Source: a bacterium | GTDB taxonomy: Bacteria > UBP6 > UBA1177 > JAKLFG01 | Assembly (NCBI GenBank): GCA_022709425.1 | Contig: JAKLIW010000003.1 | Span: forward strand, 102,293 to 166,292 | DNA: 64,000 nucleotides | Direction of reading: 5' to 3' | Part shown: piece after piece, positions 2,432 to 23,100 of the stretch | How the letters are laid out: the number at the start of each line of letters is the position of its first letter | Position numbering within the stretch: position 1 is the stretch's first letter | Translations under genes and position numbers: made by a program | Notes under the pieces: generated by a model | The model's database searches: none | Told to the model about the DNA's origin: nothing | What the model saw: only the letters and a program-made list of their open reading frames with translations

Positions 2432-2656
2432 ATGAAAGTGAAGGACATAAAGACGCGCTTCGGCGCTCGGCTTCGGCAACTCCGTAAGGAGAAAGAGCTC
2501 AGCCAAGAACAGCTCATGATGGCGACCGGCATCCACCGCACATATATCTCAGAGGTAGAGCGCGGGATACGAAACATCAGCCTTCTCAACATCGAGAAGA
2601 TCGCTAAAGCGCTCGAAGTGGACATCCGAGACCTGTTTGACTTCCGCTCTTCGTAG
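2432..2656 (+). CDS. XRE-family helix-turn-helix transcriptional regulator (Cro/C1-type)
   Basis: The 74-aa sequence RLRQLRKEKELSQEQLMMATGIHRTYISEVERGIRNISLLNIEKIAKALEV is a canonical HTH_3 signature. Confidence 0.85.
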   Translation: MKVKDIKTRFGARLRQLRKEKELSQEQLMMATGIHRTYISEVERGIRNISLLNIEKIAKALEVDIRDLFDFRSS

Positions 2657-2702
2657 AAAACACCCCCGATGAATGAAAGAGGGCCTGCTGTCTGGGGATG
2701 GG

Positions 2703-2735
2703 GGTGGGGGTGAGCAGCAGACCCACCTTTTCTTA
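2703..2735 (+). terminator. Possible intrinsic terminator after the XRE gene (ggtggg...cccacc stem plus ttttctt)
   Basis: A hairpin with a 6-bp GC stem is followed directly by a T-tract, about 50 nt after the stop codon. Confidence 0.35.
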
Positions 2736-2768: not shown

Positions 2769-3254
2769 CTACCCGTAACGTCTGACGAAGATATCCAGCG
2801 CCTTTCCATCGAGGAACTGCGAAGCGAACTGTTCGTCGCTGTGCTTCGGATACGCCTTCCACCAGAACGAAGTCTCATCCATTCCGACGAGAGAGCCCTC
2901 CATACGCTCTTCGTCGCCGTCGCGTAAGAACTCGCCCGATGCGATGCTCGTCTTCATCTCGTATGCGTCGATGATCCGGCACAGGTGGTTCTTCCGGGTG
3001 TTGTAGCGGAGCAGACCGTTCACTTCTTCTTCCGAGAAGACCGGGACCTTATCGACCCGGTAGTACCGCGCCGGGTAGTAGAAATGCATGTCACAGAACG
3101 GTTCGTCGCACGATTTCATGTCGCGGGCCACGGTCTGCCGGGCCAGAAGACGATGGCATTCTTCGACGGTCAGATCAACGAGGACCACATCGGGACCGTC
3201 GGAGTACTCGCCGGCATGGACCGGCAACATGATCAGGAGCGTCGGGTTCTTCAT
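2769..3254 (-). CDS. Hypothetical protein (162 aa). It is the last gene of the WYL-led operon.
   Basis: The internal Met (MKNPTLLIMLPVHAGEYSD...) overlaps the stop of the upstream 60-aa ORF in an ATGA-type overlap. The long-ORF N-terminal extension is low-complexity S/G/R sequence. No family was recognised. Confidence 0.5.
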   Translation of the reverse strand: MKNPTLLIMLPVHAGEYSDGPDVVLVDLTVEECHRLLARQTVARDMKSCDEPFCDMHFYYPARYYRVDKVPVFSEEEVNGLLRYNTRKNHLCRIIDAYEMKTSIASGEFLRDGDEERMEGSLVGMDETSFWWKAYPKHSDEQFASQFLDGKALDIFVRRYG

Positions 3255-3433
3255 GATGCCCTCCTTTTTGCGTCTCTCTTCAGAGCCGTTACTCGTGCCT
3301 TTGCTGCACTCGTCATAGCCCGGTCTGCTTTCCAAGGAGCCGTTCGCCGCTTGCTCGTCGCTGCTTCCCACTTCCTCGCCGGCCAAATTGCGATTGCCGC
3401 TCGAAGGTCGCGTACGGTGTACTTCATGGCCAC
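3251..3433 (-). CDS. Small basic K/R-rich protein (60 aa), hypothetical
   Basis: Its start lies 6 nt after the stop of the 3439..3813 gene, and its stop overlaps the start of the 2769..3254 gene. This is classic operon tiling. The composition is highly basic. Confidence 0.4.
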   Translation of the reverse strand: MAMKYTVRDLRAAIAIWPARKWEAATSKRRTAPWKADRAMTSAAKARVTALKRDAKRRAS

Positions 3434-3438
3434 CTCCG

Positions 3439-3813
3439 TCAGTCTTCATCGGGGAACATGACCGTGACGACGGCGCGTTCGTCGTCGCCGGGCCCGCACA
3501 GCGTCCAGAGATCGACCTTCTCGGGCTGATGCCCTCCACGGGGAATCCTGAGAATGGAGAAGTGCATCACCGGGAGGGGGCATTCCAACGCCGTGCGGTG
3601 CATGATCGTAAGCAGGTCCCAGAGACGCCCCGGTTCGTCCTGGTAGACCTGTTCGCTGGCGTTGTCCCACGCCACGCATTCCTCCCAGACTAGGCGGGTC
3701 AGAGCGACCGGGTAGATGAAGCCGGCCTGTTTGGCCATGTCGGATACATCGACGAGGACGCCGTCGGCGAGGGCCTGAGTGCGGGAATAGGCATGAATAA
3801 TGTCGTTGTTCAT
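3439..3813 (-). CDS. Hypothetical protein (124 aa)
   Basis: Clean ORF in the same operon (MNNDIIHAYSRTQALADGVLVDVSDMAKQAGFIYPVALTRLVWEE...). No motif was recognised. It resembles small proteins carried on plasmids and phages. Confidence 0.5.
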   Translation of the reverse strand: MNNDIIHAYSRTQALADGVLVDVSDMAKQAGFIYPVALTRLVWEECVAWDNASEQVYQDEPGRLWDLLTIMHRTALECPLPVMHFSILRIPRGGHQPEKVDLWTLCGPGDDERAVVTVMFPDED

Positions 3814-3952
3814 TTTCCCTCCAAGTTGGTTGTAACTAATGACAGACTAGAACTAGTCCTTACCTACATATAACGCATTTGAGCGACATTTTTTCGTTGA
3901 AGAATTCTGCCGACTTCTTTGGCGGGGTTTGAAGAGAAAATACCGGAGACGA

Positions 3953-4354
3953 TTACTTCAAAAGCTTCTGCTTGCCTTTGTACCAAGCATCGTATTCTTC
4001 CATCATCGCCTCGACCTTCCCCATTATATCTTTCTTGTCTTTGGCCGTAGCTTCCGGATGGTCCTTGAAGTACTGCTCCACTCTTTTACCCCACCTCGAC
4101 AGGATCATGTGAATGGTTTCGACGGAAGCGCCCGGTAATTTAAAAGTGCTTCCCGACTCCACATTAATCCCGCTCAGACTCTGGTACCGATGCGTCAATA
4201 CGATCTTCACCTTTCCCTCTGTGCCCTCCATGATCTTCTCCATCGTTAGTGGTTTGTCATCCTGCTTCTCCTTGCAGCAGGAAACTTTCTTGTGCGTGAG
4301 ACTGGGGATGCCCGTGGAATTCTTGCCTTGACGGCTGGTTTTCTGCGTGGTCAT
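3953..4354 (-). CDS. Hypothetical protein (134 aa, start at the internal Met MTTQKTSRQGK)
   Basis: ORF in the same operon. The N-terminal extension in the ORF track looks non-coding. Confidence 0.45.
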   Translation of the reverse strand: MTTQKTSRQGKNSTGIPSLTHKKVSCCKEKQDDKPLTMEKIMEGTEGKVKIVLTHRYQSLSGINVESGSTFKLPGASVETIHMILSRWGKRVEQYFKDHPEATAKDKKDIMGKVEAMMEEYDAWYKGKQKLLK

Positions 4355-4513
4355 TTTGACCCTCCTCGTGAAATTGATCCAACAACCAACTTGCTTATCG
4401 CAGCAGGTCGCACAGGTATATAATAGCAGCTTCCGGAGCAATATCACGAAAGAATTACTTTCGTTTTTGACAGTGAATTACTTTTGTGATTACAGGCGGA
4501 TATGACTTTTGCG

Positions 4514-5395
4514 CTAGGGAGTTTCTCCCTTTTTTATGCCTTCCATTCTCTTACGGACGAGCCCATTTATTTCGGATTTTTTAAGGTTTTTTATAAAAAA
4601 GAGCGATTTTTCCTTCCCGTCCTTCTTATGTTCCGAGTGCTCAGTATACCACAACTTGCTGTATCTATTTAATATTCTCCACAGATGTGTCTTGCTGATC
4701 TGACCAGTCGAAGTAGGGCTCGATATCAAAACCGACTCTAAAATGTCCGTACTGCTCCATTCCTTGCTGCGCAATTTCTCCATCTTTCTGTATTTGTCAA
4801 CTGTTTCGCGAAGGATCATTTTCTCAAGTGAAAAGTGGTTGATCGTAAGAATCTCAGACATCCGCCTCTTTTGTTTTGACAATTCCAAAGACAGTTCTCT
4901 TTTCTTTTTTTTCTCTTCCTTAATTGTATTTCTGTGCCGTGAAACTATTCTTTCTGTGGGAATGATTGATATGGCCTTTTTGATGTCTTTTATGGGTACG
5001 AGTCCTTTTTTGTGAAGGTATAGGATTGTATTGTAAAAAGTTGTCGTAATGTCATCGCACATTTTCTGACTGTTGTTACCGTCAAGAAGGGAATTGATCA
5101 TGCTTCTCGTTAATATATATTCGCTTGGGGTATTGTTTGATTTGCGTTCATTTATATCAAGGCATTTGAACATATCATGTAAGAAATTATAGGATATGTT
5201 CATTATGCTCTGATCCAACTTAGAAGTTCTAGAGTATAGTTGGAAATGTTCACTGTTAATAATGACCAAAGTAAGCTTTTCTCCGATGAACGGCGTAAAC
5301 GCAATGCCGGCACGAAACCCATCCGTTACAGTTCCCACAGAAGAAATTATTCCTTCCTTTTGATAACGACAGGGCTCCATCATGTTTCTCCTCAC
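4514..5395 (-). CDS. Hypothetical protein (293 aa) encoded in a strongly AT-rich, low-GC segment. It is translationally coupled to the upstream WYL regulator.
   Basis: There is a 4-nt overlap with the stop of the WYL gene. GC is far below the window average and the protein is K/E/S-rich. No family was recognised. Confidence 0.6.
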   Translation of the reverse strand: MRRNMMEPCRYQKEGIISSVGTVTDGFRAGIAFTPFIGEKLTLVIINSEHFQLYSRTSKLDQSIMNISYNFLHDMFKCLDINERKSNNTPSEYILTRSMINSLLDGNNSQKMCDDITTTFYNTILYLHKKGLVPIKDIKKAISIIPTERIVSRHRNTIKEEKKKKRELSLELSKQKRRMSEILTINHFSLEKMILRETVDKYRKMEKLRSKEWSSTDILESVLISSPTSTGQISKTHLWRILNRYSKLWYTEHSEHKKDGKEKSLFFIKNLKKSEINGLVRKRMEGIKKGETP

Positions 5396-6342
5396 TTTTG
5401 ATTGAAAAGGTTATACGCAGTCCTTAGTCTGTTCAACCAGTACTTCCTATATTCCTTCGGTGCCGTGATTTCGGCGTGCGGAGTGAAGCCGAGGACCATG
5501 TAGGTGATCTCGATGGGATCGGCGACGGGTAGAGTCAGTTCGATGCACGGCTTGCCGGCGCAGGTCGTCTCGATCATCCGCTGCTTCGGATGCCATTCGC
5601 GGTCGCGGACGATATGCAGGATCGGCTCATGGAACCGTATCGTCACCTCCTGCGCCTCGGGCAACTTGAAGATGCCGTAGCCCTCCTCAAGGTACTTCTT
5701 GAGCAGCCGCTCGTCGAGTTCATGCTCGAACGGCTCGCCGGTGGCCATGATCTCGATGACGCGCGACAGGAGGAAGGTCCGGACCTCTTTCGAGGCGCGG
5801 CACCACGCGAGGAGATACCACTTCCCGGAGTAGTTCAGCAGATGCCACGGTTCGACGAACCGTTTCGACTGTTCCCCGGCCGCGTTCTGGTAGATGAGGC
5901 CGAGCGCCGTCGAGGAGCGCATCGCGTCGAGCACCTGTTTGACGATGCCGGGACGGAACCGTTCGTGGTCGGCGAGCTCGTAACTGATCCGGTCGAGGAT
6001 TGGGAGGTAATCCTTCAGGTACTTATCCTCGATGGAGTTCAGGAGCTCCTGCGATACGATCGGCATGAGCGAAAGGTTCTTGGCGATCCGCTGGACGAGC
6101 ACATAGAACAGCAGCATTTTCTCGTCGGCGTAATCGAAGAGGTCGTACGGCTTGGTATAGTAGTAGCCGTTCTGCTCTCGCGAGTATTCGATGGGCGCCT
6201 GCATCTCGGCCCGCATGTGGGCGATATCGCGCTTCACCTGCCGTTCGCATACCTCCAGTTCGGTAACCAGTTGTGCGAGCGATACGGTCCTCGACCGCTT
6301 GAGCGCCTGATGGATCAGATAGATGCGATGCGTGTTCGACAT
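5392..6342 (-). CDS. WYL-domain transcriptional regulator (HTH-WYL-WCX architecture, BrxR/CapW/PafBC-like)
   Basis: N-terminal DeoR-like HTH (IYLIHQALKRSRTVSLAQLVTELEVCERQVKRDI). Central WYL signature (NYSGKWYLLAWCRASKEVRTFLLSRV). C-terminal WCX-like extension. Length 316 aa. Confidence 0.8.
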   Translation of the reverse strand: MSNTHRIYLIHQALKRSRTVSLAQLVTELEVCERQVKRDIAHMRAEMQAPIEYSREQNGYYYTKPYDLFDYADEKMLLFYVLVQRIAKNLSLMPIVSQELLNSIEDKYLKDYLPILDRISYELADHERFRPGIVKQVLDAMRSSTALGLIYQNAAGEQSKRFVEPWHLLNYSGKWYLLAWCRASKEVRTFLLSRVIEIMATGEPFEHELDERLLKKYLEEGYGIFKLPEAQEVTIRFHEPILHIVRDREWHPKQRMIETTCAGKPCIELTLPVADPIEITYMVLGFTPHAEITAPKEYRKYWLNRLRTAYNLFNQK

Positions 6343-6454
6343 GGGCCCCTCCCAGGGTACAGATAAAAAGGAGTATCGCGTTTCTCTCCGATTTTGTCAA
6401 GTTGCGGGACAGCCCTTGTCACACCGGGTGTGCTAGAGTGAAAAACGACGAATA

Positions 6455-8113: not shown

Positions 8114-8503
8114 ATGAACCAAGAAACGGCAATAACTCTCCGTGTCGAACCCTCCTTTGACGATCATCTCGAGGTGTTCGTAGAAATCCAAGCCGCCGGT
8201 GGAGAAGGACGCCTGACGGTCATCCGTGAAGGTTTTCGCGACCCACGGAAAGTCAAATGTCGATTGTCAGGAAAGGATGCCGATCACATAAGACGATTGC
8301 TTGATGGCCTGTGCATCAGCGGGGTGTCGCCTGCAATGATGGGGCTCGATGGCACCACCTACTCCCTGCGGGTCAACTCCTATCCTGTTATGTTGGAACT
8401 TGCGTGGTGGGTCAGCCCACCGACTTCCTGGGTCGGGGTGACCGCTCTGGTGGATGCACTTCGCGCGTTGGCGGGAGAATGCACAGATATCACTGACCGT
8501 TAA
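8114..8503 (+). CDS. Hypothetical protein (129 aa), co-operonic with the AAA+ ATPase
   Basis: Its start abuts the AAA gene stop. No motif was recognised. Confidence 0.5.
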   Translation: MNQETAITLRVEPSFDDHLEVFVEIQAAGGEGRLTVIREGFRDPRKVKCRLSGKDADHIRRLLDGLCISGVSPAMMGLDGTTYSLRVNSYPVMLELAWWVSPPTSWVGVTALVDALRALAGECTDITDR

Positions 8504-8515
8504 AAAGAGGTATTC

Positions 8516-10028: not shown

Positions 10029-10223
10029 CCACTGGACCAAGCGCAAGACCACGATGTTGCCGGTAAAGAGCACGGCATCCCCCAAGGATAGGTTGACGGT
10101 TATATATATTACAAGCAGAGGGACTCCCGGTGTCCCTGTGGCGGTGGTATGATACAAGTATGAGCGTGCCGATTTGGACCGGATTGCGGGGCACGAAAAA
10201 CGAACCGCTAAAAGGAGACTGTC

Positions 10224-10493
10224 ATGAGTGAGCACAAAGAGTTCAGACCGTTCGTTACGCGTCGTTATCTTGCCGCCGTCTATGAGCGCATCCCCGTTCC
10301 GGCGGAACTGACCACCGAGGAAGAGATGGCCGCCTTTGCGCGAGGGGCGACCCTCGGCCGCTTCAAATGTGTTCTGGCGCCGGGTCCCGGGCGGGCGATT
10401 TGGTTCAATGAAAAGGGCGAGATCACCGGGCGCGACGAACATGACGCCCAACTGCCGCGTGCAAAGCCCGATGTGGGGAGACTGATATTTTAG
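10224..10493 (+). CDS. Hypothetical protein (89 aa)
   Basis: Clean ORF that follows a promoter-like AT-rich stretch. No motif was recognised. Confidence 0.4.
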   Translation: MSEHKEFRPFVTRRYLAAVYERIPVPAELTTEEEMAAFARGATLGRFKCVLAPGPGRAIWFNEKGEITGRDEHDAQLPRAKPDVGRLIF

Positions 10494-11900: not shown

Positions 11901-12482
11901 ATGTCCCGATTGATGAAGGTAAAGGGTATGAAAAAAGGTGACAACAGCTGGATGTATGCCAACACACCATCGAATGATGCTCGCTTTCTCTTGGGGCAAC
12001 AGCTTAAAAAAACAGGACCAACCCTCATTTGTATAGGGGTAAATCCCAGCACTGCCGAACCAGATGATTTGGATCCTACTCTAGCGCGGGTTCGTAATAG
12101 GGCGGATGACCGAGATTATGCACGATGGGTCATGTTGAATTTATATCCGCAGCGCGCCACCGATCCGAATGATATGGATGAGGTCTGCAATATAGGTTGG
12201 CGCAGGGAAAACCTGCAGAAGATCGCGGCTCTGATAGACAGCCTTCTGCTCAAAGGGCCAATAGATATTTGGTGTGCATGGGGGAACCTCATCGACAAGA
12301 GGCCCTACTTGAGATCCTGCTTGAGAGAGATAGTTGAACTCCTGTTACATCGACCCGGACTTCATTTTCTCACTTTTGGTAAAGAGACAAAAAAAGGCAA
12401 TCCGCACCACCCACTTTTTCTAAAGAGAAAACTGAAGGCCAAAAAACTATCAAGGGAAGATATCAATCGTTTTTTGATATAA
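11901..12482 (+). CDS. DUF1643-family protein
   Basis: ICIGVNPSTAEPDDLDPTLARVRN...WVMLNLYPQRATDPNDM matches the NPSTA / DPT / NL..R.TdP hallmark blocks of DUF1643 as I remember them. Confidence 0.6.
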   Translation: MSRLMKVKGMKKGDNSWMYANTPSNDARFLLGQQLKKTGPTLICIGVNPSTAEPDDLDPTLARVRNRADDRDYARWVMLNLYPQRATDPNDMDEVCNIGWRRENLQKIAALIDSLLLKGPIDIWCAWGNLIDKRPYLRSCLREIVELLLHRPGLHFLTFGKETKKGNPHHPLFLKRKLKAKKLSREDINRFLI

Positions 12483-12503
12483 ACAACAGGTCGGGAGAAC
12501 AGG

Positions 12504-13583
12504 ATGGGTTTGCCGGCAATCAGAGGAGCGATTCTTGAAGAAATAGTTTTATACCTGCTCGCAAGAGTCGGGTATCGAGAAATTATTGCTGGTGAAGAGG
12601 GAACGCGGAGGGGACATTCCGGTCTTGAGGTGGAGGGGCGTGGGGAATGGCATCAAATTGATGCTTTTGCCGCCTTCGATCATTCCCCAGCTTTTATGTA
12701 TCCACTGCGGCTTATGGTGGAAGCGAAGTGTTATGTTGCTTCCCGTCCAGTTGGAATAGAAACTGTGCGAAATGCAGTCGGTGTATTGAAAGATATTTCA
12801 GAAAACTACTTTACACCTCGACTATATTCCAATCACCGGGATTCAATAAAGTTTCAACAATACAACTATCATGCAGCTATTTTCTCTACCAGCGGATTCA
12901 CGCGAGGCGCAGAACGTTATGCTATAGCACACCAAATATTTCTCATACAATATAAGGATGTTCATCTTTTTCACCCCATTTCGCAGGCATTGTTGGGCAT
13001 TGGCAACAAACATTTCAAGAAAACAATGCTTTCCAGAAATAACATTACAAATGTCTCGCGAGAGGCGGTTCGCCGATTACTTCGGGGAGATCCCTTAACG
13101 GATGTTATGCCTTTTACGCGATCTGGACTCAAATATCTCAGAGAGCAAATATTGAATCCATTGCACGCTATTGGTGGGTCATACTTCGGAATGTTGCAAG
13201 GCAAGTGGCCAATCCATCTGCTTTCAGAAACTCCCTTGCCCTTAGCTCTTTTTAGAGAGCAGGATGTGGTCAAGTGCAAGATATACGGACGCGAAAGCAA
13301 GCATTGGTCCTTTGTGCCTGTTGATCAAAGAGAGGGGAGCGAGAACTGGTTTCGTCTAGAATTTGATTTGCCTGAAGAAGTCTTAGAGCTTGTCTGGTCG
13401 GCTCAAGGCGATAGAATTGCAATTGCACAACTAAAAATAGAGCATTTCTCTTTTATATGTGTTTCAGGAATTATCGGTAATGTGCGCCGGCAGGTTATCC
13501 TGGAACTAGATGAAGGCTGGATAAATGATTACATAAACAAAATGCGCGAAGCTGCCAACAAGCAAAAGACAAGGCACCCATGA
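12504..13583 (+). CDS. Mrr-like restriction endonuclease-fold protein (PD-(D/E)xK)
   Basis: N-terminal GAILEEIVLYLLARVGYREI resembles Mrr_cat. HQIDAF...LMVEAKCY gives a D / E-A-K core. The start is 22 nt after the DUF1643 stop. Confidence 0.6.
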   Translation: MGLPAIRGAILEEIVLYLLARVGYREIIAGEEGTRRGHSGLEVEGRGEWHQIDAFAAFDHSPAFMYPLRLMVEAKCYVASRPVGIETVRNAVGVLKDISENYFTPRLYSNHRDSIKFQQYNYHAAIFSTSGFTRGAERYAIAHQIFLIQYKDVHLFHPISQALLGIGNKHFKKTMLSRNNITNVSREAVRRLLRGDPLTDVMPFTRSGLKYLREQILNPLHAIGGSYFGMLQGKWPIHLLSETPLPLALFREQDVVKCKIYGRESKHWSFVPVDQREGSENWFRLEFDLPEEVLELVWSAQGDRIAIAQLKIEHFSFICVSGIIGNVRRQVILELDEGWINDYINKMREAANKQKTRHP

Positions 13584-13647
13584 ACGAAACCGAAACCAGA
13601 ACCAAGCATATTGATCCTAAACAAATCCATGAGAGAATTATTGTTTA

Positions 13648-14574
13648 ATGTGGTGTTCAGAGGAGGGCTCTGAAATGTCAAGAAACTTAAGAAAAGAGCG
13701 GGCATGGTTGTTAACGGTGGCTCGGACTGTTGCCGTCAGACTCAAACAGTATAGCGATGGAACAAAAATACGTATAAGAAAGCCCACCCGTGTAACAGAA
13801 TCAAACACCGATGGTTGGTACGCTATCATTGGCGATATGGGGAAGAATCAACCGCGGCTTGAAATATGGCTCGATAGGTTTTCAGGGTATCCTGAGCGTA
13901 AACTATATGCTTGCTTTCGATCAGCAGAGAAAGAGCCGTTGATGAACCTCACCAAGCATGTCTCGCGGAACCTATGGCCGGTCCGTGTAATTACCATGAA
14001 AGATACCAACGGTGAAGAAAATGATTGTATTCTTACCGACCGTCTCAAGCGCGCTGAATTCAATGTCCCCATCCTCGAAAAATATGAAGAAGAGTGCGTA
14101 TACTACTTTGGCTTCTATGATCCAACTCGAAAATCTGAGGACAAAATAAACTCATATTTCTGTGATCGAGCCGTGGCTTTTTTCGAGGATGTGGCTCGTG
14201 CTCAGCCTAAGGCAACAGAGCAGGACGAGCAGCGAGAGGTTTATCCTCAACTGGAAAATCGACAACAAGTGGCATCGCATATCAGGCGCGAAAGAAGTCG
14301 CTACCTGTCCACAGAAAGGAAAATCCTTGACGATTACCAATGCCAGGTATGCGGTATGCGATTCGAGGAAGTTTACGGTGAGGCACTGGGGGCAAGATAT
14401 GCCGAAGCGCATCATTTGGTGCCACTGGGCAAATTGGAGGGTGCCGTCAAAACAAAAATCGAAGACCTGCGCACTGTTTGTGCTAACTGTCATCGAATGC
14501 TACACCGCATGGATGGTAAGCGAGATGACATTGCAAAGCTTAAAGCAACCCTTGATAAACATCGGAAGAAATAG
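13648..14574 (+). CDS. HNH endonuclease-domain protein with an unknown N-terminal domain
   Basis: C-terminal CQVCGMRFEE...AEAHHLVPLGKLEGAVKTKIEDLRTVCANCHRMLH is a canonical HNH (C-x2-C ... HH ... C-x2-C-H). Confidence 0.8.
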   Translation: MWCSEEGSEMSRNLRKERAWLLTVARTVAVRLKQYSDGTKIRIRKPTRVTESNTDGWYAIIGDMGKNQPRLEIWLDRFSGYPERKLYACFRSAEKEPLMNLTKHVSRNLWPVRVITMKDTNGEENDCILTDRLKRAEFNVPILEKYEEECVYYFGFYDPTRKSEDKINSYFCDRAVAFFEDVARAQPKATEQDEQREVYPQLENRQQVASHIRRERSRYLSTERKILDDYQCQVCGMRFEEVYGEALGARYAEAHHLVPLGKLEGAVKTKIEDLRTVCANCHRMLHRMDGKRDDIAKLKATLDKHRKK

Positions 14575-14609
14575 GGATGCTTTACAAGAATGCGGGAAAT
14601 GATGTCTGC

Positions 14610-14641
14610 GTAATAGGAGAAAAATGGATTTTGTTATAATG
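14610..14641 (+). promoter_or_regulatory. Candidate sigma-70 extended -10 promoter (tgtTATAAT) upstream of the methyltransferase operon
   Basis: TGnTATAAT lies at about 14632-14640, followed by a GAGGG RBS 7 nt before the ATG at 14686. Confidence 0.3.
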
Positions 14642-14685
14642 ATAAACTACAGTTACTGAGCCTTTAGCATCATGAGGGAAAAGCC

Positions 14686-16752
14686 ATGGTAAAAGAGCAG
14701 CATCAACCAGAGACCAGAGAAAAAAGCACGAATAGGAAAAAGAGTCTATCCGCTCTTAATACTATTCCAGCAGGGTACACCCTGGATTATATTTCCAGTA
14801 AACCAATCAAAGAGACTGCCAAGGAACAAGTTCGTCAGCGGGTGGTGCGTGCCCTGATTCACGAATATGGTTTTTCTCCAGAAGATATGGAGTTGGGTTT
14901 TTCCATTGGCGGTCGCAAGAAAGTTGATGTGGCCATTTTTCACCATGGCAAAGAACACACACTCGAAAATCTCGGCCGTGCCGTGATTTGCCGCCAGGAG
15001 CCAAATATTGGCAAGAACGCTGCCCGGATCCGGGACTTTGAACAGGCCGCAAATGACCTCGAAGAGATCGAGACTATTATGAGAGAGGTCGATGCGGTTC
15101 AGTATGGCCTGTGGACCAACGGTCTGGAATTCTTTTTTATCGAGAAAGAGCGGCAGCGCTTCGAAACCAAGTGCAACCCCATCGGTGACTGGCCGATGGC
15201 CGAAGAGTCAGTCGGTACCAAGGAGGTTATCTCCGATGCCCATACTCGCGTCGCCGACACAGAAATGCTCAAGATCACCTTCCGGCGTTGCCACAACTTC
15301 ATCCACGGCAACGAAGGCATGCCCAAGGACGCCGCATTCTGGCAGTTCCTTTATCTGATCTTCTGCAAAATGCATGACGAAAACCTGCGCGCCAAGCAGC
15401 GTCAGGCTTGGCAGTGCCGCTTCTGGGCTGGTCCCAAGGAGCAGTTCGAGGCCCAAGGCCGCAAGGCAATCCGCGTACGCATCGAGGATCTCTTCACCGA
15501 GGTCAAGAAGCAGTACAAGAACATTTTCCGAGGCAATGAGGAGATAGCCCTCTCCGACCGGGCACTGGCCTTTATCGTCTCTGAACTAGCCAAATACGAT
15601 TTCACCCGCACAGATGTCGATGCCAAGGGCGTGGCCTATCAGGAATTGGTGGGCGTCAACTTGCGCGGCGACCGTGGTCAGTATTTCACCCCCCGGGGCG
15701 TCGTGAAACTGGTAATTGAAATGCTCGATCCCCAGGAAAACGAAACTTTGCTGGACCCTGCCTGTGGCACCGGCGGTTTCCTGGTAGCCACATTGGGCCA
15801 TATGCTGAAGAAATTCCGCATAGAACAAAACACTCAGGTTGGGAAGGAGAGCACGACCGATTTTTTGAACGTTCACGAGCGGTTGAAAGAGTTTGCCGCT
15901 ACCAATGTGTTCGGGGCCGACTTTGACCCGTTTCTGATCCGAGCCGCGCAGATGAACATGGTTCTGGCAGGTGATGGTCGTGGGCATCTTTACAACATCA
16001 ATTCTCTAGAATTTCCACTAGGGCACCTAGCTGATTTGCCCTCTGCCAAGAAGGACCTCCCCTTTGGCTCTGTTGATCTCATTGCTACTAATCCACCGTT
16101 CGGTTCAGATATTCCAATTACCGATAGACACATCTTGGAGCAATATGAATTAGCTCACGAATGGAAGTCTGATGGAGAGGGTGGTTTTCGCAACACAGGC
16201 AGATTGCAGAGTAGCATGGCCCCTGAGATACTTTTTATTGAACGCTGCATTAAATGGATCAAGCCCGGTAAGGGTCGGATGGGCATTGTCCTGCCTGACG
16301 GGGTTCTCGGCAACCCAGCAGCGGAATACATCCGTTGGTGGATTATGCGCGAAACCCAAGTACTTGCCTCCGTTGATTTGCCGGTAGAATCCTTTATCGC
16401 CGAGGCCAATGTTAACATCCTCACCAGCCTGTTGTTCCTGCGCCGCAAGAGTGAAGAAGAAAAACGTACCGAGGCCATGGGCGCCATTGAAGAATATCCA
16501 GTCTTCATGGCCGTGGCCGACAAGGTTGGCTTCGACCGTCGCGGCAACAAACTCTACAAGCGCACTCCTGACGGCGAAGAAATCGTCGAAGCCAAGCAGC
16601 ATGTTGAGCGTATCCGCATCGGCGGACGCTTTGTGGAACGTACCCTGACTCGCAGTGAAAAGATTGAGGATAACGATCTGCCGGTTATCGCTGAAAAATA
16701 CCGAGAATTTATTAGGGAGCAAAAAGATGGGCGAAGAAAACGACATCATTGA
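14686..16752 (+). CDS. N6-adenine DNA methyltransferase (gamma-class, HsdM-like) fused to an N-terminal HSDR_N-type PD-(D/E)xK-like domain whose catalytic motif is degenerate
   Basis: Motif I LDPACGTGGFLV. Motif IV NPPFG. The N-terminus shows the HSDR_N pattern (RALIHEYGF...VDVAIF...AVICRQEP...GLWTNGLEFFF), but the canonical IE.K is replaced by ICRQ. Confidence 0.85.
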   Translation: MVKEQHQPETREKSTNRKKSLSALNTIPAGYTLDYISSKPIKETAKEQVRQRVVRALIHEYGFSPEDMELGFSIGGRKKVDVAIFHHGKEHTLENLGRAVICRQEPNIGKNAARIRDFEQAANDLEEIETIMREVDAVQYGLWTNGLEFFFIEKERQRFETKCNPIGDWPMAEESVGTKEVISDAHTRVADTEMLKITFRRCHNFIHGNEGMPKDAAFWQFLYLIFCKMHDENLRAKQRQAWQCRFWAGPKEQFEAQGRKAIRVRIEDLFTEVKKQYKNIFRGNEEIALSDRALAFIVSELAKYDFTRTDVDAKGVAYQELVGVNLRGDRGQYFTPRGVVKLVIEMLDPQENETLLDPACGTGGFLVATLGHMLKKFRIEQNTQVGKESTTDFLNVHERLKEFAATNVFGADFDPFLIRAAQMNMVLAGDGRGHLYNINSLEFPLGHLADLPSAKKDLPFGSVDLIATNPPFGSDIPITDRHILEQYELAHEWKSDGEGGFRNTGRLQSSMAPEILFIERCIKWIKPGKGRMGIVLPDGVLGNPAAEYIRWWIMRETQVLASVDLPVESFIAEANVNILTSLLFLRRKSEEEKRTEAMGAIEEYPVFMAVADKVGFDRRGNKLYKRTPDGEEIVEAKQHVERIRIGGRFVERTLTRSEKIEDNDLPVIAEKYREFIREQKDGRRKRHH

Positions 16753-18772
16753 AACCCTAGAGGAAGAACTCCTCGAAAAAGAGGATGTTGACGATGAAAG
16801 CGGTCCGGAGAAGTTCTTTATTGACATTCTGACCGGCAACAAAGAAAGCTCCTCGGCCAAGAAACTGCTAGTGCAGAAGGTCCTGCGCCAGCTCATCGAG
16901 AGTTACGGATTTGACCGAAATGATATTGAGGTTGATTACAAACATCGCATCAGGGGCGGCAAGCCGGCGAAAATTGATATTGTTATTTTTCGCCCCGATG
17001 CCGAACACACCAACGACAACCTGCAGCGAATCATCATCTGTAAGAATCAGAAGAAGCACGATAAGCTCCGCTCCGTTACCGAGGCCGACGCCGACCTGCG
17101 TCAGCTCAAGGAGCTGCTCGAGCTGATCCCCGGCACGACCCTGGGTATGTGGACCAATGGACACGAGGAATTCCTGTTCCAGGTCGAGCGCACCCGTTTC
17201 GAGGTCCGAACCAAACCTCTAGGCGTTTGGCCCATACCCGGAGAGGCAACAGTCGACCTTGAGCGCACAGGAGGAGTCATTCAGGTAAGCGCTGATGCGG
17301 AAGGCCTCGAAGATGCTCTTTCCCGTTGCTTCCTCTACCTTTCCAGCAATCAAAACATTGGCTTGGGTGACAGGGCTGGTTTTCAGCAGCTTGCTTTAAT
17401 TCTATTTTCGAAGATCTATGACGAAACGAAGCCTGCTGGTGAGAGACTGTTTTGGATCAAAGGGGAAGAGCCTTTTACACCAGAAGGTCAAGCGGCCATT
17501 CAACAGAGGATCGTTTCTTGTATAGAGGGGGCAATTGCATGGAAACCCAACCTCCTTGAACAAGGCTGGACTCTGAACCTAAGACCAAGCCAAACGGCTC
17601 GCGTGGTCATGGAGCTGGCTCGTTACTCTTTGAGCGAAACACTTCCTCGTTACCGAACCGGAGCTTTCAGATCAGTTGCTCGGTATGTAATGGACGGCAA
17701 AGATGGCCGCTATCCTACGCCACTCAATGTGGCCGAAATGGCGGTGGAGATGCTCGACCCGCAACCCGGTGAACGCATCATGGACTGCTCCAGCGGTACC
17801 GGCACTTTCTTGGCCATGGCCGCTGCGCACATCTTCAAGAAGAAACTGGCCGCCAGTGGCGCCACGCCTGAAGAGGCCACCAACAAACAGATCCGTCAGG
17901 CGCAAAACGAAACCGCCACCTGGGCGGCAAGCAATGCCCTGGGCTGTGACATTGATCCCTTTCTGGCCGTCGCCAGCCGCATGAATCTGCTGTTTACCAC
18001 CGGCAATCCCGGCCGAGTGTTCCGCATAGATGCCCGGACCTTCCCTGATGGAGATCAAGAGGGCATTGAAGTAGCTCGGCAATGCATGCCCCTCGGTAGC
18101 ATGGATGTGGTTTTGCTTAATCCATGGTTCTCCACCAAAAACACGGTGACCGATTCATTCATCCTAGAACGCTATGGCCTGGGCAATAACTGGGAGCGCG
18201 ATGAGGAAGGTGGATTCCGCAATACGGGCAATCTGAACACCGGTGGCGTACCACCCGAGGTTCTTTTTATCGAACGTGCCCTGCAGTGGGTGAAACCGGG
18301 CACCGGTCGTATCGCTATTTTATTGCCGGACGGGATCTTGGGTAACCCCGGAGATGAATACGTACGCTGGTGGATTCTGCGTCACTGCGAGGTGTTGGCC
18401 AGCGTCGACTTGCCCGTTGAACCCTTCAAGGTCACCGTCAAGGAGTATGGCCTGACGCCAGCTTTGCCTAGCCTACTGGTGCTGCGCCGTCGCAGCCAGG
18501 AAGAGCTGATCAACACAGAGTACCCGGAATACAAGGTCTTCATGGCCGTGGTGGATCGGGCCGGTGTGGATGCCCGAGGTAATCTGCTTTTCCAGCGAGC
18601 CCCCGATGGTGAAGAACTGGTTTTCGATGAGGAAGTGATCGAGCGGGTTCGTGAAGGTGGCGAAGTGAAAATCCGCCGCACCACGCGCCGCAACCGTCGC
18701 ATTCATGACGAACTGCCGCTGGTGGCAGAGAAATACAAGGAATTCCGCGCAACCGGCGAGGTGATGTTATGA
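16727..18772 (+). CDS. Paralogous HSDR_N-fused N6A-methyltransferase-like protein with an atypical motif IV (NPWF) and a degenerate nuclease motif (ICKN)
   Basis: Motif I MDCSSGTGTFLA. Motif IV reads NPWFSTKN instead of NPPF/Y. HSDR_N-like N-terminus (LRQLIESYGF...IDIVIF...RIIICKNQ...GMWTNGHEEFLF). Start set at the Met with an AGGGAG RBS; it overlaps the upstream gene. Confidence 0.8.
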   Translation: MGEENDIIETLEEELLEKEDVDDESGPEKFFIDILTGNKESSSAKKLLVQKVLRQLIESYGFDRNDIEVDYKHRIRGGKPAKIDIVIFRPDAEHTNDNLQRIIICKNQKKHDKLRSVTEADADLRQLKELLELIPGTTLGMWTNGHEEFLFQVERTRFEVRTKPLGVWPIPGEATVDLERTGGVIQVSADAEGLEDALSRCFLYLSSNQNIGLGDRAGFQQLALILFSKIYDETKPAGERLFWIKGEEPFTPEGQAAIQQRIVSCIEGAIAWKPNLLEQGWTLNLRPSQTARVVMELARYSLSETLPRYRTGAFRSVARYVMDGKDGRYPTPLNVAEMAVEMLDPQPGERIMDCSSGTGTFLAMAAAHIFKKKLAASGATPEEATNKQIRQAQNETATWAASNALGCDIDPFLAVASRMNLLFTTGNPGRVFRIDARTFPDGDQEGIEVARQCMPLGSMDVVLLNPWFSTKNTVTDSFILERYGLGNNWERDEEGGFRNTGNLNTGGVPPEVLFIERALQWVKPGTGRIAILLPDGILGNPGDEYVRWWILRHCEVLASVDLPVEPFKVTVKEYGLTPALPSLLVLRRRSQEELINTEYPEYKVFMAVVDRAGVDARGNLLFQRAPDGEELVFDEEVIERVREGGEVKIRRTTRRNRRIHDELPLVAEKYKEFRATGEVML

Positions 18773-20181
18773 GTAGAAAATTTCAATGCAAAGCGATACC
18801 AAGCACTTGGCTTGAGCACAATGGTCGCCGCCTTGATTGTGGTCCCTATATGTCCGGGGCTATAGAAGCCCGCGAACTTCTAAAAAGGCACGAAACAGAG
18901 GCTCTCCAATCTCTAACGGCGGGGTATAACGGAGGAATTTATAACGGGCCACAATTCGTTAGGAACTACGTTGAAGATCCAGCTTTCGGAGTCCCTTTTT
19001 TAACGACTTCAACAATGCAGCAAAGCGATACGAGTGGCCTTCCTATGATTAGTCGAAAAGACGCACATTCATCCAAGTTGCGCTACTTAAAAGTTAATGA
19101 GGGAATGACGCTGATCACATGCTCAGGAAGCATAGGGAAAATGGCCTATGCAAGAAAGGACATGGAAAAAGCGTGGTCAAACCAAGACATCATGAAGGTT
19201 GTTGCAGATCGAGCCAAAATCCTCCCTGGATATCTCTATGCCTACCTTTCTAGTCGTTTTGGTGTTCCGATGGTAGTCTCAGGCACTTACGGGGCAATCA
19301 TCCAGCATATTGAGCCGCATCACATTTCAGACCTTCCTGTTCCACGTCTCAGCGAAATTGAGAATCAAGCACATGACCTGATTCAAGGAGCAGCGAACCT
19401 GAGGGTTGAGGCTGCCGAAATAATTGCGCAGATCAGCGCAGAGGTCGAGAGAAGATTCGATTTGTGGGATGAGTCATTATCTGACAAGGCGAGAATAGCA
19501 AGAAACGGTTTTTTAACAACGTCTACTGCTCTTGCAGAGTCGGGCCGCTTTGAAGCCACTTACCATGACGCGATCGCTGCAGCAATCGCTGACAGGGTTC
19601 AATCTCAACCAAATACCCGAATAGACATTGTATGTAAAGTTAAGAAGCCAGGTATGTTCAAAAGGATCATGGTTGATGGCCCCGAACACGGCTATGGCTT
19701 TGTCCCTGGTTCTGAGTTATTTACATTGGCACCAAAGCCCGTGTACTGGGTCTCGCCGAGAACTCCGAATATCGAAGATTGTGTGATGTCTCCGTATTGG
19801 ATTCTCATCCAAGCGTTTGGGCAGCTTGGCGGATTGATTGGCCGATGTATTATGACTACTCCAATGCTGGAGGGTTGTGCCGCCACTGATCTTCAGATTC
19901 AACTCAGATTCGACAATAAGTTAGACGCTGGTTATGTGTTCGCGATTCTTTACAGTCGACCTGGTTATAAACTAATTACTAGAACTCCCATCGGTGGATC
20001 AATTCCGCACATTCATCCGAAAGACATTGAGTCACTTTGTATCCCTTGGCCAGAAGCAGATGTAAGACATGCTATTGGTGAAAGGATTATTGAGGCTTGG
20101 GATAAGCGTGAAGAAGCTGTTCGATTAGAGGATGAAGCCCGCTCCCTAGTCGAACGCACCATCGAGGAGGGAGGTCACTAA
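18769..20181 (+). CDS. HsdS-like specificity subunit with two target-recognition domains
   Basis: 470 aa. Two repeats of the TRD-end conserved block (GAIIQHIEPHHISDLPVPRLSEIENQAHDLIQ and GGSIPHIHPKDIESLCIPWPEADVRHAIGERIIEAW), the latter coiled-coil-like. Lower GC than the flanks. ATGA overlap with the upstream MTase. Confidence 0.7.
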   Translation: MSRKFQCKAIPSTWLEHNGRRLDCGPYMSGAIEARELLKRHETEALQSLTAGYNGGIYNGPQFVRNYVEDPAFGVPFLTTSTMQQSDTSGLPMISRKDAHSSKLRYLKVNEGMTLITCSGSIGKMAYARKDMEKAWSNQDIMKVVADRAKILPGYLYAYLSSRFGVPMVVSGTYGAIIQHIEPHHISDLPVPRLSEIENQAHDLIQGAANLRVEAAEIIAQISAEVERRFDLWDESLSDKARIARNGFLTTSTALAESGRFEATYHDAIAAAIADRVQSQPNTRIDIVCKVKKPGMFKRIMVDGPEHGYGFVPGSELFTLAPKPVYWVSPRTPNIEDCVMSPYWILIQAFGQLGGLIGRCIMTTPMLEGCAATDLQIQLRFDNKLDAGYVFAILYSRPGYKLITRTPIGGSIPHIHPKDIESLCIPWPEADVRHAIGERIIEAWDKREEAVRLEDEARSLVERTIEEGGH

Positions 20182-23100
20182 TGGCGAAGGTCATACCCAT
20201 CGGGCAACCCGCGAACGAATCTGAACGCCAGGCCATTGGTTTCCTTCGGGACCATTTGCCCGATGGATGGCTGATCTTCCACAACTTCGAGATGCGCCAG
20301 GGAGAGGAAGTGTTCGAAATTGACATTGCCATCCTCGCGCCTCACGCGGTGTACCTAGTGGATGTCAAGGGGACGCGGGGCAACATCGATGTGTATGGCT
20401 CCAAGTGGTACCCCGAAGGGCGGCAGCCTTTTCATTCGCCACTCGCTAAGTTGCGCAGCCACGCCAAGACCATGGCCACCATCATCCGCGAGAGCAATAC
20501 CGGCTTGATTGAGTTGCGCAAGGCCCATGTGCATGCTGCCGTGCTGCTCACCGCCGATGACGCTGTCGTGTTCGACCAGGCAGGCATAGACAGCCCAGAT
20601 GTGACCGACTTCAAACATTGCCTGAAATACTTCCGTGACCAAAGCCGCATCCCCGACAACCGTCTGGATAACATCACCCGCTTCCACTCCCAGATTGCCA
20701 AAGCGATTACCGGCAAAGCAAAGCCCAAGAGCGCTGCCCTGGTGTTCCGCGACTGGCAGGTTGAAGAGAAGCTCGGCGGCACCGACCGTTACACCGAATA
20801 TCGTGCCAAGCACAACCTGCTGGGCAAGAGCGGCGGCATGGCCCGCCTGCGCGTCTACCAAGCCGACCCCTATCAGGATGAGACCGCTCGCAAGGAAGAG
20901 TTCAAGAAAATCAGTAACGCATATCGTGCTGTCGCACATATGCCGACCCACGCCAACGTGCTGGCGGTGAAAGATCTCTTCAAGAATGAGGACGAGGATA
21001 AGATCGTACTGGTAACCGAGGACTTGCCCGGACAAGCTCTGCGCCTGCATATCAACAAGGCCTCCCTAGCGCTGACCTTCGATCAAAAACTACAAGTGAT
21101 GCGCGATGTATTGTCGGCGCTGGACCACGCGCATCGGCATGAGGTGATACACCGCAATCTCACCCCGGACGCCATTCTGGTTACCAAGGGTGGGCAAACA
21201 AGAGTTGTCGATTTTGATTATGCTCGTATTGGAAACAATCAAACACTTACTATTGCGCCCCTTATTATTGAGGATTTGGCAAAAAAAGAGTTTGAGAAAT
21301 ACCAAGCTCCAGAATGCGTGAGGTCTCCTGAGAAGGCTAGTATTGCATCAGATATCTATTCTTCAGGAGTTGTTTTTTATGAGCTACTAACTGGCGAACT
21401 ACCTTTTGAAAGTGTCGACCAGATGATAGAGGCCGCCGGCAAGTTCCCGGTGAACCCTTCAGAGCATAAGCCGGACCTGCCCAAAGGGATTGACGAGTGG
21501 ATACAGAAGTTCTGCGAGTTCGACCCCGAGGAACGGCACACCAACGCGGCCATTGCCCGCAAGGCCCTGGATGATCTGATTCTGCCCGAGGCCAAGAACG
21601 ACTCTGCTCCGGATGTTGGCGGCCCGGCCGCGGTTGTGCCTCAGCTCCCGGATGACTTGATGAACCTGCCGCAGAATTTCATACTGGCAGATCGCTTCCG
21701 CATTCAGAAAAAGCTGGGCAGTGGCGGCTTTGGGGTTGTCTACAAGGTATTTGATTCGCTAGGCGATGTGGTGCGGGTCATCAAACTGGTAACCAAAGAC
21801 CGCAACAGCGTATACGAACGACTACGCCGCGAATATAAAACCTTGATTAATCTGCCAGACCATCCGCGCGTAGCAAAGGTGATCTGGGCTGATCGCATGA
21901 ACGATACCCCTCAAACGCCCTACATAGTCTTTGAGTATCGGGAAGGTTTAGATGTTTCCGATCTGATCGATGCTAAAGCACTATCGGCGGAGGATGCCGC
22001 AAATATCGTTCGCGAGGCTGCTGAAGGATTGGCTCATCTCCACAAGCATGGTGTTTATCACCAGGATATCAAGCCGTCTAATCTGTTGTGGACTGACAAT
22101 GGTGTTTGCATCATCGATTTTAATATCGCAGTTTCCGAGAATGAAGAGCATCAAGGAGGCGGTGGTACGCGCCGCTATCTGCCGCCAGATTACGATTACT
22201 CCTCCAGGCCGGACACTTCTGATTGGATAGATCGCGACCTCTATGCCTTAGGTATTTCATTCTACGAGTGTCTGACCGGAACATATCCTTTCGACAGCCA
22301 CACACCACCGATCAAGGTGCAACCTAAGGACCCCAAGCAGTTCAAGGGTTGTGCCGACCTCAGTTCAACGCTTATAAATGTGTTGGTGAAGATGATTGCG
22401 CCGGAACGCAAGAATCGATTCGCCTCGGCGGAAGAGTTTTTGACCGCCCTGGCCGAGGTCAAGCGTCTGCGCTCGGTACTGACCACCGGAGAGGTTGGCG
22501 CCGGACACAAGGTCTTGTCCAAGCTAGGTTTCGAGCCGATTAAGCCCAACACCAATCCCTTTGTCACTCACCTGCTGACTCTCTACAGCCAGAGCCAGGT
22601 GTCTAACGCGGGCACCCGCGGTCTCGACGAAGTTGGCAAGGCCACCTACGTGCCGACCTATCTGGACGAAAAACTCAAGCCCGCGCTGCTCAAGGGAGAG
22701 TTCCGCCTGGTCATCATCAGCGGTAACGCCGGTGACGGTAAGACGGCTTTTATTCAGCAGTTCGAGGCTTTTGCCGAGAGCAAAGGCGCACAGATGCAGC
22801 GTGGCGCGAATGGGGCTGTTTTTCAGCTTAAGGGGTATACCTACCAGAGCAACTACGACGGTAGCCAGGATGAAGGCGACGAGCGCAACGACGCCGTGTT
22901 GCAGAAGTTCTTTGCCCCCTTCGCGGGCAAGGACGATTTCGGATGGCCCCAGAATCAGACCCGCCTGATCGCCATCAATGAAGGACGATTGGTCGATTTC
23001 TTTCTGGAACATGAAGAGGAGTTCCCTCTGCTCACCAAGCAGCTCCAGCAGGGGTTGGCCGGAGCCGCTCCGGAAGGGGGTATCGCAGTCATCAACCTCA

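Follow-up and report, generated by a model that had tools for sequence, protein, structure and literature searches.

Is a row of small genes behind a WYL-type transcription regulator a conserved system under the control of that regulator, or a load that differs from genome to genome? This question is raised by a minus-strand transcription unit at positions 2769-6342 of a 64,000-nt stretch of bacterial DNA (contig JAKLIW010000003.1, positions 102,293 to 166,292, assembly GCA_022709425.1; lineage UBP6), which is referred to as the window in the following. The unit starts with the gene of an HTH-WYL-WCX transcription regulator (hereafter WYL), followed by five genes designated p289, p133, DUF6573, p58, and p162. 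In this study, we compared the unit with related loci and analyzed its gene models, putative operators and promoters, and protein families. On balance, we regard it as one transcription unit headed by WYL, with a variable slot for cargo genes downstream, and not as a conserved multi-gene system. The small genes are rather likely swappable cargo picked up at different times, because the conserved partner of WYL is an AAA+ ATPase under a shared palindromic operator.

All open reading frames (ORFs) of the minus strand that a preliminary description of this DNA had reported are present at their coordinates. The WYL gene (6342-5392; 316 aa) is followed after ~8 nt by p289 (5383-4514; 289 aa), after a further 159 nt by p133 (4354-3953; 133 aa), after 139 nt by the gene of the DUF6573 protein (3813-3439; 124 aa), and after 11 nt by p58 (3427-3251; 58 aa), which overlaps p162 (3254-2769; 161 aa) in an ATGA motif; a hairpin with a T tract (2724-2671) closes the unit. 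Thereby, the ATGA stop/start overlap described for the 58/60-aa and the 162-aa ORF was found again, and the stop-start tiling described for the small ORFs holds for DUF6573, p58, and p162, which are tightly spaced, but not across the gaps of 159 nt and 139 nt on either side of p133. The strong AT-richness noted for the 293-aa version of p289 was also seen by us (GC 0.38; GC content at third codon positions, GC3, 0.46 vs. ~0.8 in the neighbors). Its overlap of 4 nt with WYL arises only if a GTG is taken as the start codon; ATG 5383, which leaves the gap of ~8 nt, is the likelier start because an AGGAG Shine-Dalgarno (SD) sequence precedes it and both public gene calls gave 288-289 aa. The gene caller used for the source contig fused the 58-aa and 162-aa ORFs into a single 226-aa gene. 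We favor two separate genes here, since the three p162 homologues have 157-163 aa and the fused frame contains stop codons in the related locus L005. The statement that none of the small proteins matches a known family had to be corrected, since the 124-aa protein is a member of Pfam family DUF6573 (PF20213).

Related loci were fetched by identical-protein look-ups and by a metagenome scan anchored on the WYL protein, and L002, L004, L005, and L171-L175 were mapped versus the window with tblastn and blastn. WYL orthologues with 62-81% identity were present in five loci of the metagenomic scan, and L004 has one with 78% identity. In the window, the AAA+ gene is transcribed divergently from WYL and followed by p129 and p195, and all five small genes lie on the other side behind WYL. 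In L004 (~79% nucleotide identity), the AAA+ gene is followed by p195, and WYL by DUF6573 and p157. The 1-kb locus L005 contains DUF6573, p58, and p163 in this order, and L002 has p160 and a terminator beside a resolvase-domain gene, with neither WYL nor DUF6573. L171 (WYL 81%) and L172 (WYL 79%) keep the divergent AAA+ and WYL genes without any of the window cargo; in L171, the slot is occupied by the gene of a Fic + HTH_11 protein, followed by housekeeping genes. In L174 and L175 (WYL 62%), a homologue of the AAA+ gene lies directly downstream of WYL on the same strand.

The borders between shared and differing DNA are sharp. Relative to L004, the window contains extra segments at 3807-5433, 3267-3418, and 8115-8506. 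Breakpoints are located exactly at the WYL stop codon (window 5434, L004 4860, L171 5221, L172 1935), and a second set is located exactly at the p162 ATG. L171 and L004 share 86% identity over AAA+ and WYL, also ending at the WYL stop codon. Since homology breaks at this stop codon and the downstream content differs, WYL and AAA+ appear to be the constant unit and the genes following WYL exchangeable. The five genes are thus not a block conserved beside WYL regulators: only DUF6573 and p162 recur next to an orthologous WYL gene, in one relative (L004), and L171 and L172 keep WYL and AAA+ with different downstream content (Fic in L171). According to the best-supported reading of these alignments, the five downstream genes would have been assembled from at least three pieces, namely p289 with p133, DUF6573, and p58 followed by p162 with its terminator.

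The WYL|AAA+ intergenic region carries the palindrome GGGACAGCCCTTGTCAC (O1, 6406-6422; consensus GGGACA-N5-TGTCCC). An alignment of four such intergenic regions revealed invariant arms and a varying spacer (GGGACA-N5-TGTC(C/A)C). The six loci with this WYL clade were searched for GGGAC-N7-GTCCC with one mismatch allowed. This yielded 11 copies, all of them intergenic, at a chance expectation of ~0.013 perfect copies per locus. One copy is located upstream of the AAA+ gene in 6/6 loci, including L174 and L175, where this gene lies downstream of WYL, and one upstream of each WYL-containing transcription unit near the promoter of that unit. Further copies were found upstream of p89 (window and L004) and beside a p344 homologue (L175). 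The copy upstream of p89 (O2, 10120-10136, GGGACTCCCGGTGTCCC) belongs to a 20-nt block which is 100% identical to L004 within diverged surroundings. Its geometry equals that of O1, with a spacing of 11 nt from the palindrome to the extended -10 element at both window sites (TGcTAGAGT for AAA+, TGgTATGAT for p89), and the same 11 nt were found at the AAA+ sites of L174 and L175 (TATACT, TATGCT). On the other side, O1 lies 6 nt upstream of the -35 hexamer of a promoter-like site of the WYL unit (6372-6400, minus strand; TTGACA, 17 nt, GATACT; 10/12 consensus positions), of which both hexamers are conserved in L004, L171, and L172. No copy was present near p289, p133, DUF6573, p58, or p162.

The conservation of the palindrome supports a function as operator, and its co-occurrence with this WYL clade suggests that the WYL protein binds it. 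The best-supported regulon of the clade would then consist of the AAA+ operon and the riboswitch-p89 operon, addressed via the palindrome. Also the switch proposed earlier for the genes downstream of WYL is plausible at the level of transcription, because the palindrome precedes the WYL unit in six loci and no terminator interrupts the co-directional genes. In the internal gaps of the unit, we detected no terminator-like or unusually stable structure (folding z-scores of -0.6 and -0.7 vs. shuffles). Since there is no internal terminator and the spacing is tight both between WYL and p289 and within DUF6573-p58-p162, the cargo genes are probably transcribed together with WYL from its promoter, by read-through up to the conserved terminator. 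According to this model, a WYL dimer would bind the palindrome, thereby repressing the AAA+ and p89 promoters by occlusion and autoregulating its own promoter, and a ligand of the WYL domain would relieve the repression, which for regulators of the BrxR type would be single-stranded DNA (ssDNA) from restricted infection. The cargo, having no operator of its own, would be expressed by read-through from the WYL promoter and would therefore share the WYL switch.

The WYL protein itself (5392-6342, minus strand) was assigned by matches in Pfam, PADLOC, and PDB sequences. The HTH-WYL-WCX type given in the preliminary description agrees with its WYL domain (PF13280, 64 bits, cut-off 21.8, E 1.2e-17) and WCX domain (PF25583, 37.7 bits, cut-off 23.9, E 2.6e-9); the HTH_11 match of 23.3 bits is slightly below the Pfam cut-off of 25 bits. 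The full-length WYL model of PADLOC aligned with residues 5-297 (E 8e-35). The closest solved relatives were PafBC (E 1.7e-10, spanning WYL and WCX), BrxR (4e-8), and CapW (3e-4). Strict membership in the BrxR family is defined by BLASTP E<1e-5 to BrxR of E. fergusonii (PMC9122601). In the PDB search (E<=0.01), BrxR of Acinetobacter was matched over the WYL domain only and no other BrxR-named chain was matched, the presence of the E. fergusonii entry being unconfirmed.

BrxR-family WYL repressors bind inverted repeats, co-localize with defense systems, and adjoin highly mosaic defense content (PMC9122601), and restricted infection and ssDNA have been linked to derepression (PMC13622015). The locus studied here seems to fit this published pattern of inverted-repeat repression, mosaic defense neighborhood, and ssDNA-linked derepression. 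It shares with the BrxR and CapW repressors (PMC9122601; PMC9122589) the domain architecture, the inverted-repeat site at the regulator's own promoter, the variable and mosaic downstream content, and the location in an island with restriction-like genes, here an island of restriction-modification-like and kinase genes. However, the similarity to BrxR is limited to the WYL domain and PafBC scores higher, the conserved target is an AAA+ ATPase transcribed divergently and not BREX or CBASS, and the operator is short, a palindrome whose arms measure 6 nt, whereas the searches for BrxR sites used repeats of >=20 bp. Resemblance to the WYL activators PafBC and DriD of DNA-damage responses is given by PafBC as the top sequence match among solved structures and by the position of the operator at the WYL promoter upstream of -35, which would be compatible with activation. 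In contrast to these activators, none of the genes near the locus is a DNA-repair gene, and the palindrome overlaps with the -35 region of both the AAA+ and the p89 promoter, an arrangement in line with repression.

Several observations weigh against a variable cargo slot under WYL control. DUF6573 and p162 lie together beside WYL in L004, and L005 retains DUF6573, p58, and p162; because of this retention, some of the cargo genes may indeed function as a pair. The related loci are few and several of them short, so that the slot is described from four informative genomes. Read-through has to be assumed for the gaps of 159 nt and 139 nt, and p133 has a weak promoter-like site in front of it (4420-4447, minus strand; GTGATA, 16 nt, TATTAT with TG; 9/12 in a consensus scan). 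The assignment of WYL to the palindrome comes from co-occurrence, and another regulator could bind there. With O1 upstream of the -35 hexamer of the WYL promoter, activation is as compatible with its position as repression. Remote relatives of p289 were possibly missed, since the search of 5.8 billion proteins that returned p289 itself only was word-indexed. Finally, Fic is a toxin-type enzyme, and its presence in the same slot in L171 fits an effector slot equally well as passive cargo.

The last point leads to the main rival explanation, a WYL-gated slot for toxic or abortive-infection effectors, which would be silenced by WYL and released on infection. We consider this unlikely, and equally so that p289 (perhaps with p133), DUF6573 with p162, and the Fic protein of L171 would be alternative effectors of such a slot. 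An operator in front of every WYL-containing unit, the start of p289 just 8 nt past the WYL stop codon with a strong SD sequence, and the Fic/DOC enzyme in the same position in L171 all speak for it. BrxR-type regulators are located directly upstream of their targets (PMC9122601). AT-rich foreign genes are frequent in defense, and the Mrr, HNH, and DUF1643 genes of the island have a low GC content, too. However, the conserved target under operator control is the AAA+ operon, no PADLOC model matches the cargo apart from a chance-level SduA hit, and the distribution of DUF6573 described below does not resemble the usual one of a tightly gated toxin.

The DUF6573 protein (3439-3813, minus strand) is acidic (isoelectric point, pI, 4.5) and matches PF20213 with E 2.6e-24 and 86.2 bits (cut-off 27). 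All invariant residues of the family are kept (Y9, D17, G18, L20, G31, R63, G109, D110, T117, E123), and the copy in L004 is 81% identical. The family has at least 218 homologues in the protein collection. A confident AlphaFold2 (AF2) model was obtained (predicted local distance difference test score, pLDDT, 91.8), for which Foldseek found no structural relatives at E<=1e-3 in BFVD and PDB, and a PDB sequence search with the protein gave no match. In 56 of 80 reference-genome loci, DUF6573 lies directly downstream of the STY4534-family replication protein of integrative and conjugative elements (ICEs); these loci also carry the ICE markers ParM-like, PFL_4669, STY4528, PilL2, and TIGR03759. 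The family was further found in 239 plasmid records, 142 of which are predicted to be conjugative, and on PromA plasmids such as pSB102 it heads arrays of ~15 same-strand small ORFs beside the operon of a type IV secretion system (T4SS). It occurs in none of 50,697 records of cultured phage genomes and in 159 IMG/VR contigs, some of which bear a GpA terminase. In this survey, DUF6573 is thus mostly located on conjugative plasmids and on ICEs of the PFGI-1/SPI-7 class. The protein of the window is a full-length member of the family like those of the ICEs and PromA plasmids, but it is encoded in a chromosomal island directly under a WYL regulator, without any ICE or plasmid neighbor genes.

For a test of the association with WYL, a profile hidden Markov model built from 11 WYL proteins was run over 160 other DUF6573 loci. 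Since just one WYL-like ORF was found in them, 5 kb off and on the opposite strand, the pairing of WYL and DUF6573 appears to be specific to this lineage. Relatives of p162, p58, p133, and p289 were absent from all 160 loci. The near absence of WYL genes from the DUF6573 loci argues against the effector slot, as does the location of DUF6573 elsewhere in plasmid or ICE backbones or in small-ORF arrays, which would be unusual for a tightly gated toxin. In four IMG/VR contigs, possibly of one clade (L118, L135, L139, L147), an AAA (PF00004) ATPase related to the AAA domain of the window (E ~1e-25) is encoded ~1-2 kb upstream of DUF6573 on the same strand, which hints at a link between DUF6573 and AAA proteins or at shared ancestry.

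The same distribution is the basis for a second rival, in which DUF6573, p58, and p162 would serve a conjugative element in anti-defense or establishment and the island itself would be, or have been, mobile. We judge this quite improbable, and the same holds for the corollary that these genes act in a new host straight after transfer and that their position behind WYL is incidental. In its favor are the DUF6573 genes of conjugative plasmids and ICEs, which head small-ORF arrays on the same strand, the acidic nature of the DUF6573 and p162 proteins, a Mu-like transposase in the window, and the recurrence in L002 of p162 and its terminator next to a gene with a resolvase domain. Anti-defense genes of plasmid leading regions are defined by a location next to oriT, in the region transferred first, and by a demonstrated activity; for DUF6573 of PromA plasmids, a position at the head of small-ORF arrays beside T4SS operons was observed. 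Yet DUF6573 is missing from the leading-region anti-defense study and its supplements, and our literature search found no paper naming DUF6573 or PF20213. Furthermore, neither conjugation genes nor an integrase were found around the locus in the window, and none of the plasmids or ICEs was found to carry p162 or p58. Within the cargo-slot reading, DUF6573 and possibly p58 and p162 are likely accessory genes derived from conjugative elements, and the cargo genes as a whole are probably conflict-related accessory genes; this is the weakest step of that reading.

At the distal end of the unit, p162 (2769-3254, minus strand) encodes an acidic protein of a rare family with the invariant N-terminus MKNPTLLIMLPV. 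The gene recurs in L002, L003, L004, and L005, and the homology begins exactly at the p162 ATG. No relatives were detected in viral and JGI metagenome contigs, a PDB sequence search gave no match, and the AF2 model calculated from 4 sequences was unusable (pLDDT 46.5). The homologue in L004 (5391-5875) is apparently frameshifted near the C-terminus, as tblastn split it into two segments that differ in frame, which points either to an error in the assembly or to gene decay. Behind p162, a conserved intrinsic terminator (2671-2724, minus strand) comprises a GC stem of 10-12 bp, a C-rich loop of ~20 nt, and a T tract. RNAalifold predicted 16 pairs from four loci, 3 of them with compensatory changes. 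The loop (2691-2714, minus strand; CACCCCCACCCCCATCCCCA) is unusually large; in L002, L004, and L005 it has stayed rich in C, while covariation is seen in the stem. In L002, p160 together with its terminator adjoins the resolvase-domain gene. An integron cassette array, in which each ORF would be followed by a structured attC hairpin of ~60-140 nt and which would come with an integron integrase, was rejected, since the gaps fold no better than shuffles (z-scores given above), no integrase is nearby, and the only conserved hairpin is this terminator with its T tract. Converging on the end of the operon, an XRE/HTH_3 gene (2432-2656, plus strand; 74 aa) was observed, which, among the fetched loci, is limited to the contig of the window itself (L001) and is missing from L004 and the other related loci.

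The small gene p58 (3251-3427, minus strand) encodes a very basic protein (pI 11.8) and belongs to a 150-nt segment which is present in L005 and missing from L004. Its single detectable relative, in L005, has 58 aa, 73% identity, and the same SD sequence and ATG, and the p58 reading frame is the sole frame open in both the window and L005. With an omega of ~0.5, compared to 0.19 for the neighboring DUF6573 gene, p58 is probably a real gene, for which the evidence is modest.

Upstream, a 1.6-kb insertion (3807-5433), which is missing from L004, carries p289 and p133. p289 (4514-5383, minus strand) encodes a basic protein (pI 9.7). Its stop-free run of 298 codons exceeds that of all 2000 shuffles of the segment (maximum 212), therefore it is not a chance ORF but a real gene of foreign composition. 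No meaningful match to p289 was found in Pfam, PHROG, PADLOC, NCBIfam, or PDB sequences, the latter giving only weak, non-significant matches (top E 0.0055). For p289, p133, p58, and p162 together, searches of Pfam, PHROGs, PADLOC, and NCBIfam yielded chance-level matches only, namely Rap-GAP_dimer (E 0.07) and SduA (E 0.0016). None of the five cargo proteins, DUF6573 included, had a meaningful match in PHROGs, PADLOC, NCBIfam, or PDB sequences. p133 (3953-4354, minus strand) encodes a basic protein as well and has a strong SD sequence (GAGGAGG). An exhaustive HMMER search of 1.84 billion representatives with p133 returned the protein itself and two giant repeat proteins, which were rejected as relatives because of 22-27 bits per repeat and scores inflated by tandem repeats. 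The GC3 values of p289 (0.46) and p133 (0.68) differ from those near 0.8 of the WYL, DUF6573, p162, and AAA+ genes, and the WYL-DUF6573 spacer of L004 has no homology to the edges of the insertion. p289 and p133 are likely a recent AT-rich acquisition of foreign origin, which belongs to the same weakest step of the cargo-slot reading. A perfect 12-nt inverted repeat (CAAGTTGGTTGT / ACAACCAACTTG; 3822-3833 and 4382-4393) flanks p133, each arm being located slightly upstream of a gene start (p133, DUF6573); as ~0.5 such repeats are expected by chance in the 4.3-kb stretch, we give it no weight.

It is highly improbable that p58 and p133 are not genes and that the unit consists of WYL with p289, DUF6573, and p162 and non-coding spacers, as could be deduced from the atypical GC3 (0.54), single comparator, and omega of 0.5 of p58, its omission by one gene caller, and the missing homologue of p133, since p58 of L005 keeps length, SD sequence, and ATG with all other frames there broken, and p133 is an ORF of 133 codons with a strong SD sequence within DNA of 41-50% GC.

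The conserved partner of WYL, the AAA+ ATPase gene (PF00004; 6455-8113, plus strand; Pfam AAA E 1.7e-24), was not mentioned in the preliminary description; it lies next to the orthologue of WYL in all loci whose length allows this to be seen. Its true start is probably ATG 6473 (546 aa). The N-terminal domain of 330 aa gave no match, including PDB sequences. The top PADLOC and NCBIfam matches of the AAA domain are to IetA of the IetAS system (Gao_Iet). However, the protein scored 81 bits at a curated cut-off of 510 bits (NCBIfam IteA), the ATPase core alone aligned, the N-terminal domain is different, and the neighbors p129 and p195 have no protease domain. Membership in IetAS was therefore rejected on the basis of the score and the missing adjacent IetS serine protease. 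The genes downstream of AAA+ vary: p129 and p195 in the window, p195 in L004, genes for 313-aa and 188-aa proteins in L171, and a gene for a PIN protein in L174. The p129 ORF (8114-8503, plus strand), located between AAA+ and p195, is an insertion relative to L004, where the corresponding interval measures 43 nt; its GC3 is lower (0.57), and it matches no family.

The second target suggested by the palindrome, p89 (10224-10493; 89 aa, no known family), is preceded by a SAM-II riboswitch (SAM_alpha, RF00521; SAM, S-adenosylmethionine) at 10156-10231 on the plus strand. In L004, the riboswitch is located at 984-1059 on the minus strand. At an Rfam gathering score of 36, the window reaches 38.2 bits and L004 reaches 50.8 bits. 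An AAAGGAG SD sequence and the ATG of p89 lie at the 3' end of the SAM-II match, and the riboswitch directly follows O2; its surroundings are an island with methyltransferase and restriction-like genes, and methionine genes do not adjoin it. It is speculative that a SAM switch on a gene of a defense island serves as a sensor of phage SAM depletion. A PDB sequence search with p344, a homologue of which lies beside a palindrome copy in L175, gave no match.

The AAA+ gene may be the core of a WYL-controlled module not described before. Going further, WYL and AAA+ with their operators would form the core of an undescribed inducible conflict module, with a dedicated plug-in slot after WYL and a SAM-II layer on p89, which we rate as a rather remote prospect. 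If there were such a plug-in slot, p289/p133, DUF6573 with p162 (L004), and Fic (L171) would be exchanged in it and fired by the same WYL signal. If the SAM-II layer were true, p89 would be made only with WYL derepressed and SAM low, e.g. under attack by a phage SAM lyase.

Beyond these genes, the plus strand of the window contains a large defense-like cluster (11901-31467) with DUF1643, a Mrr-like nuclease, and an HNH protein. It further comprises two proteins with HSDR_N_2 and N6_Mtase domains (688 and 705 aa), an ORF of 470 aa that weakly matches type I S subunits, and a 1384-aa protein with NERD and double protein-kinase domains, followed by 558-aa and 1820-aa proteins without family. This content of kinases and methylases recalls Pgl/BREX type 2. 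The Mu-like transposase (rve and Mu-transpos_C_2; 40006-41541, minus strand) lies on the far side of the island, and there are no tRNA genes anywhere in the window.

That WYL regulators head mosaic conflict islands is already known; new are the defined operator and the conserved AAA+ partner, which has not been reported before. The location of DUF6573 on conjugative plasmids and ICEs is a pointer to where the function of this family can be studied. One WYL clade gains a concrete and testable candidate regulon with a defined operator, three promoters, and a conserved AAA+ target, which most defense-associated WYL regulators still lack. For guilt-by-association searches of defense systems, the locus calls for caution, as genes behind a WYL regulator need not be its functional partners.

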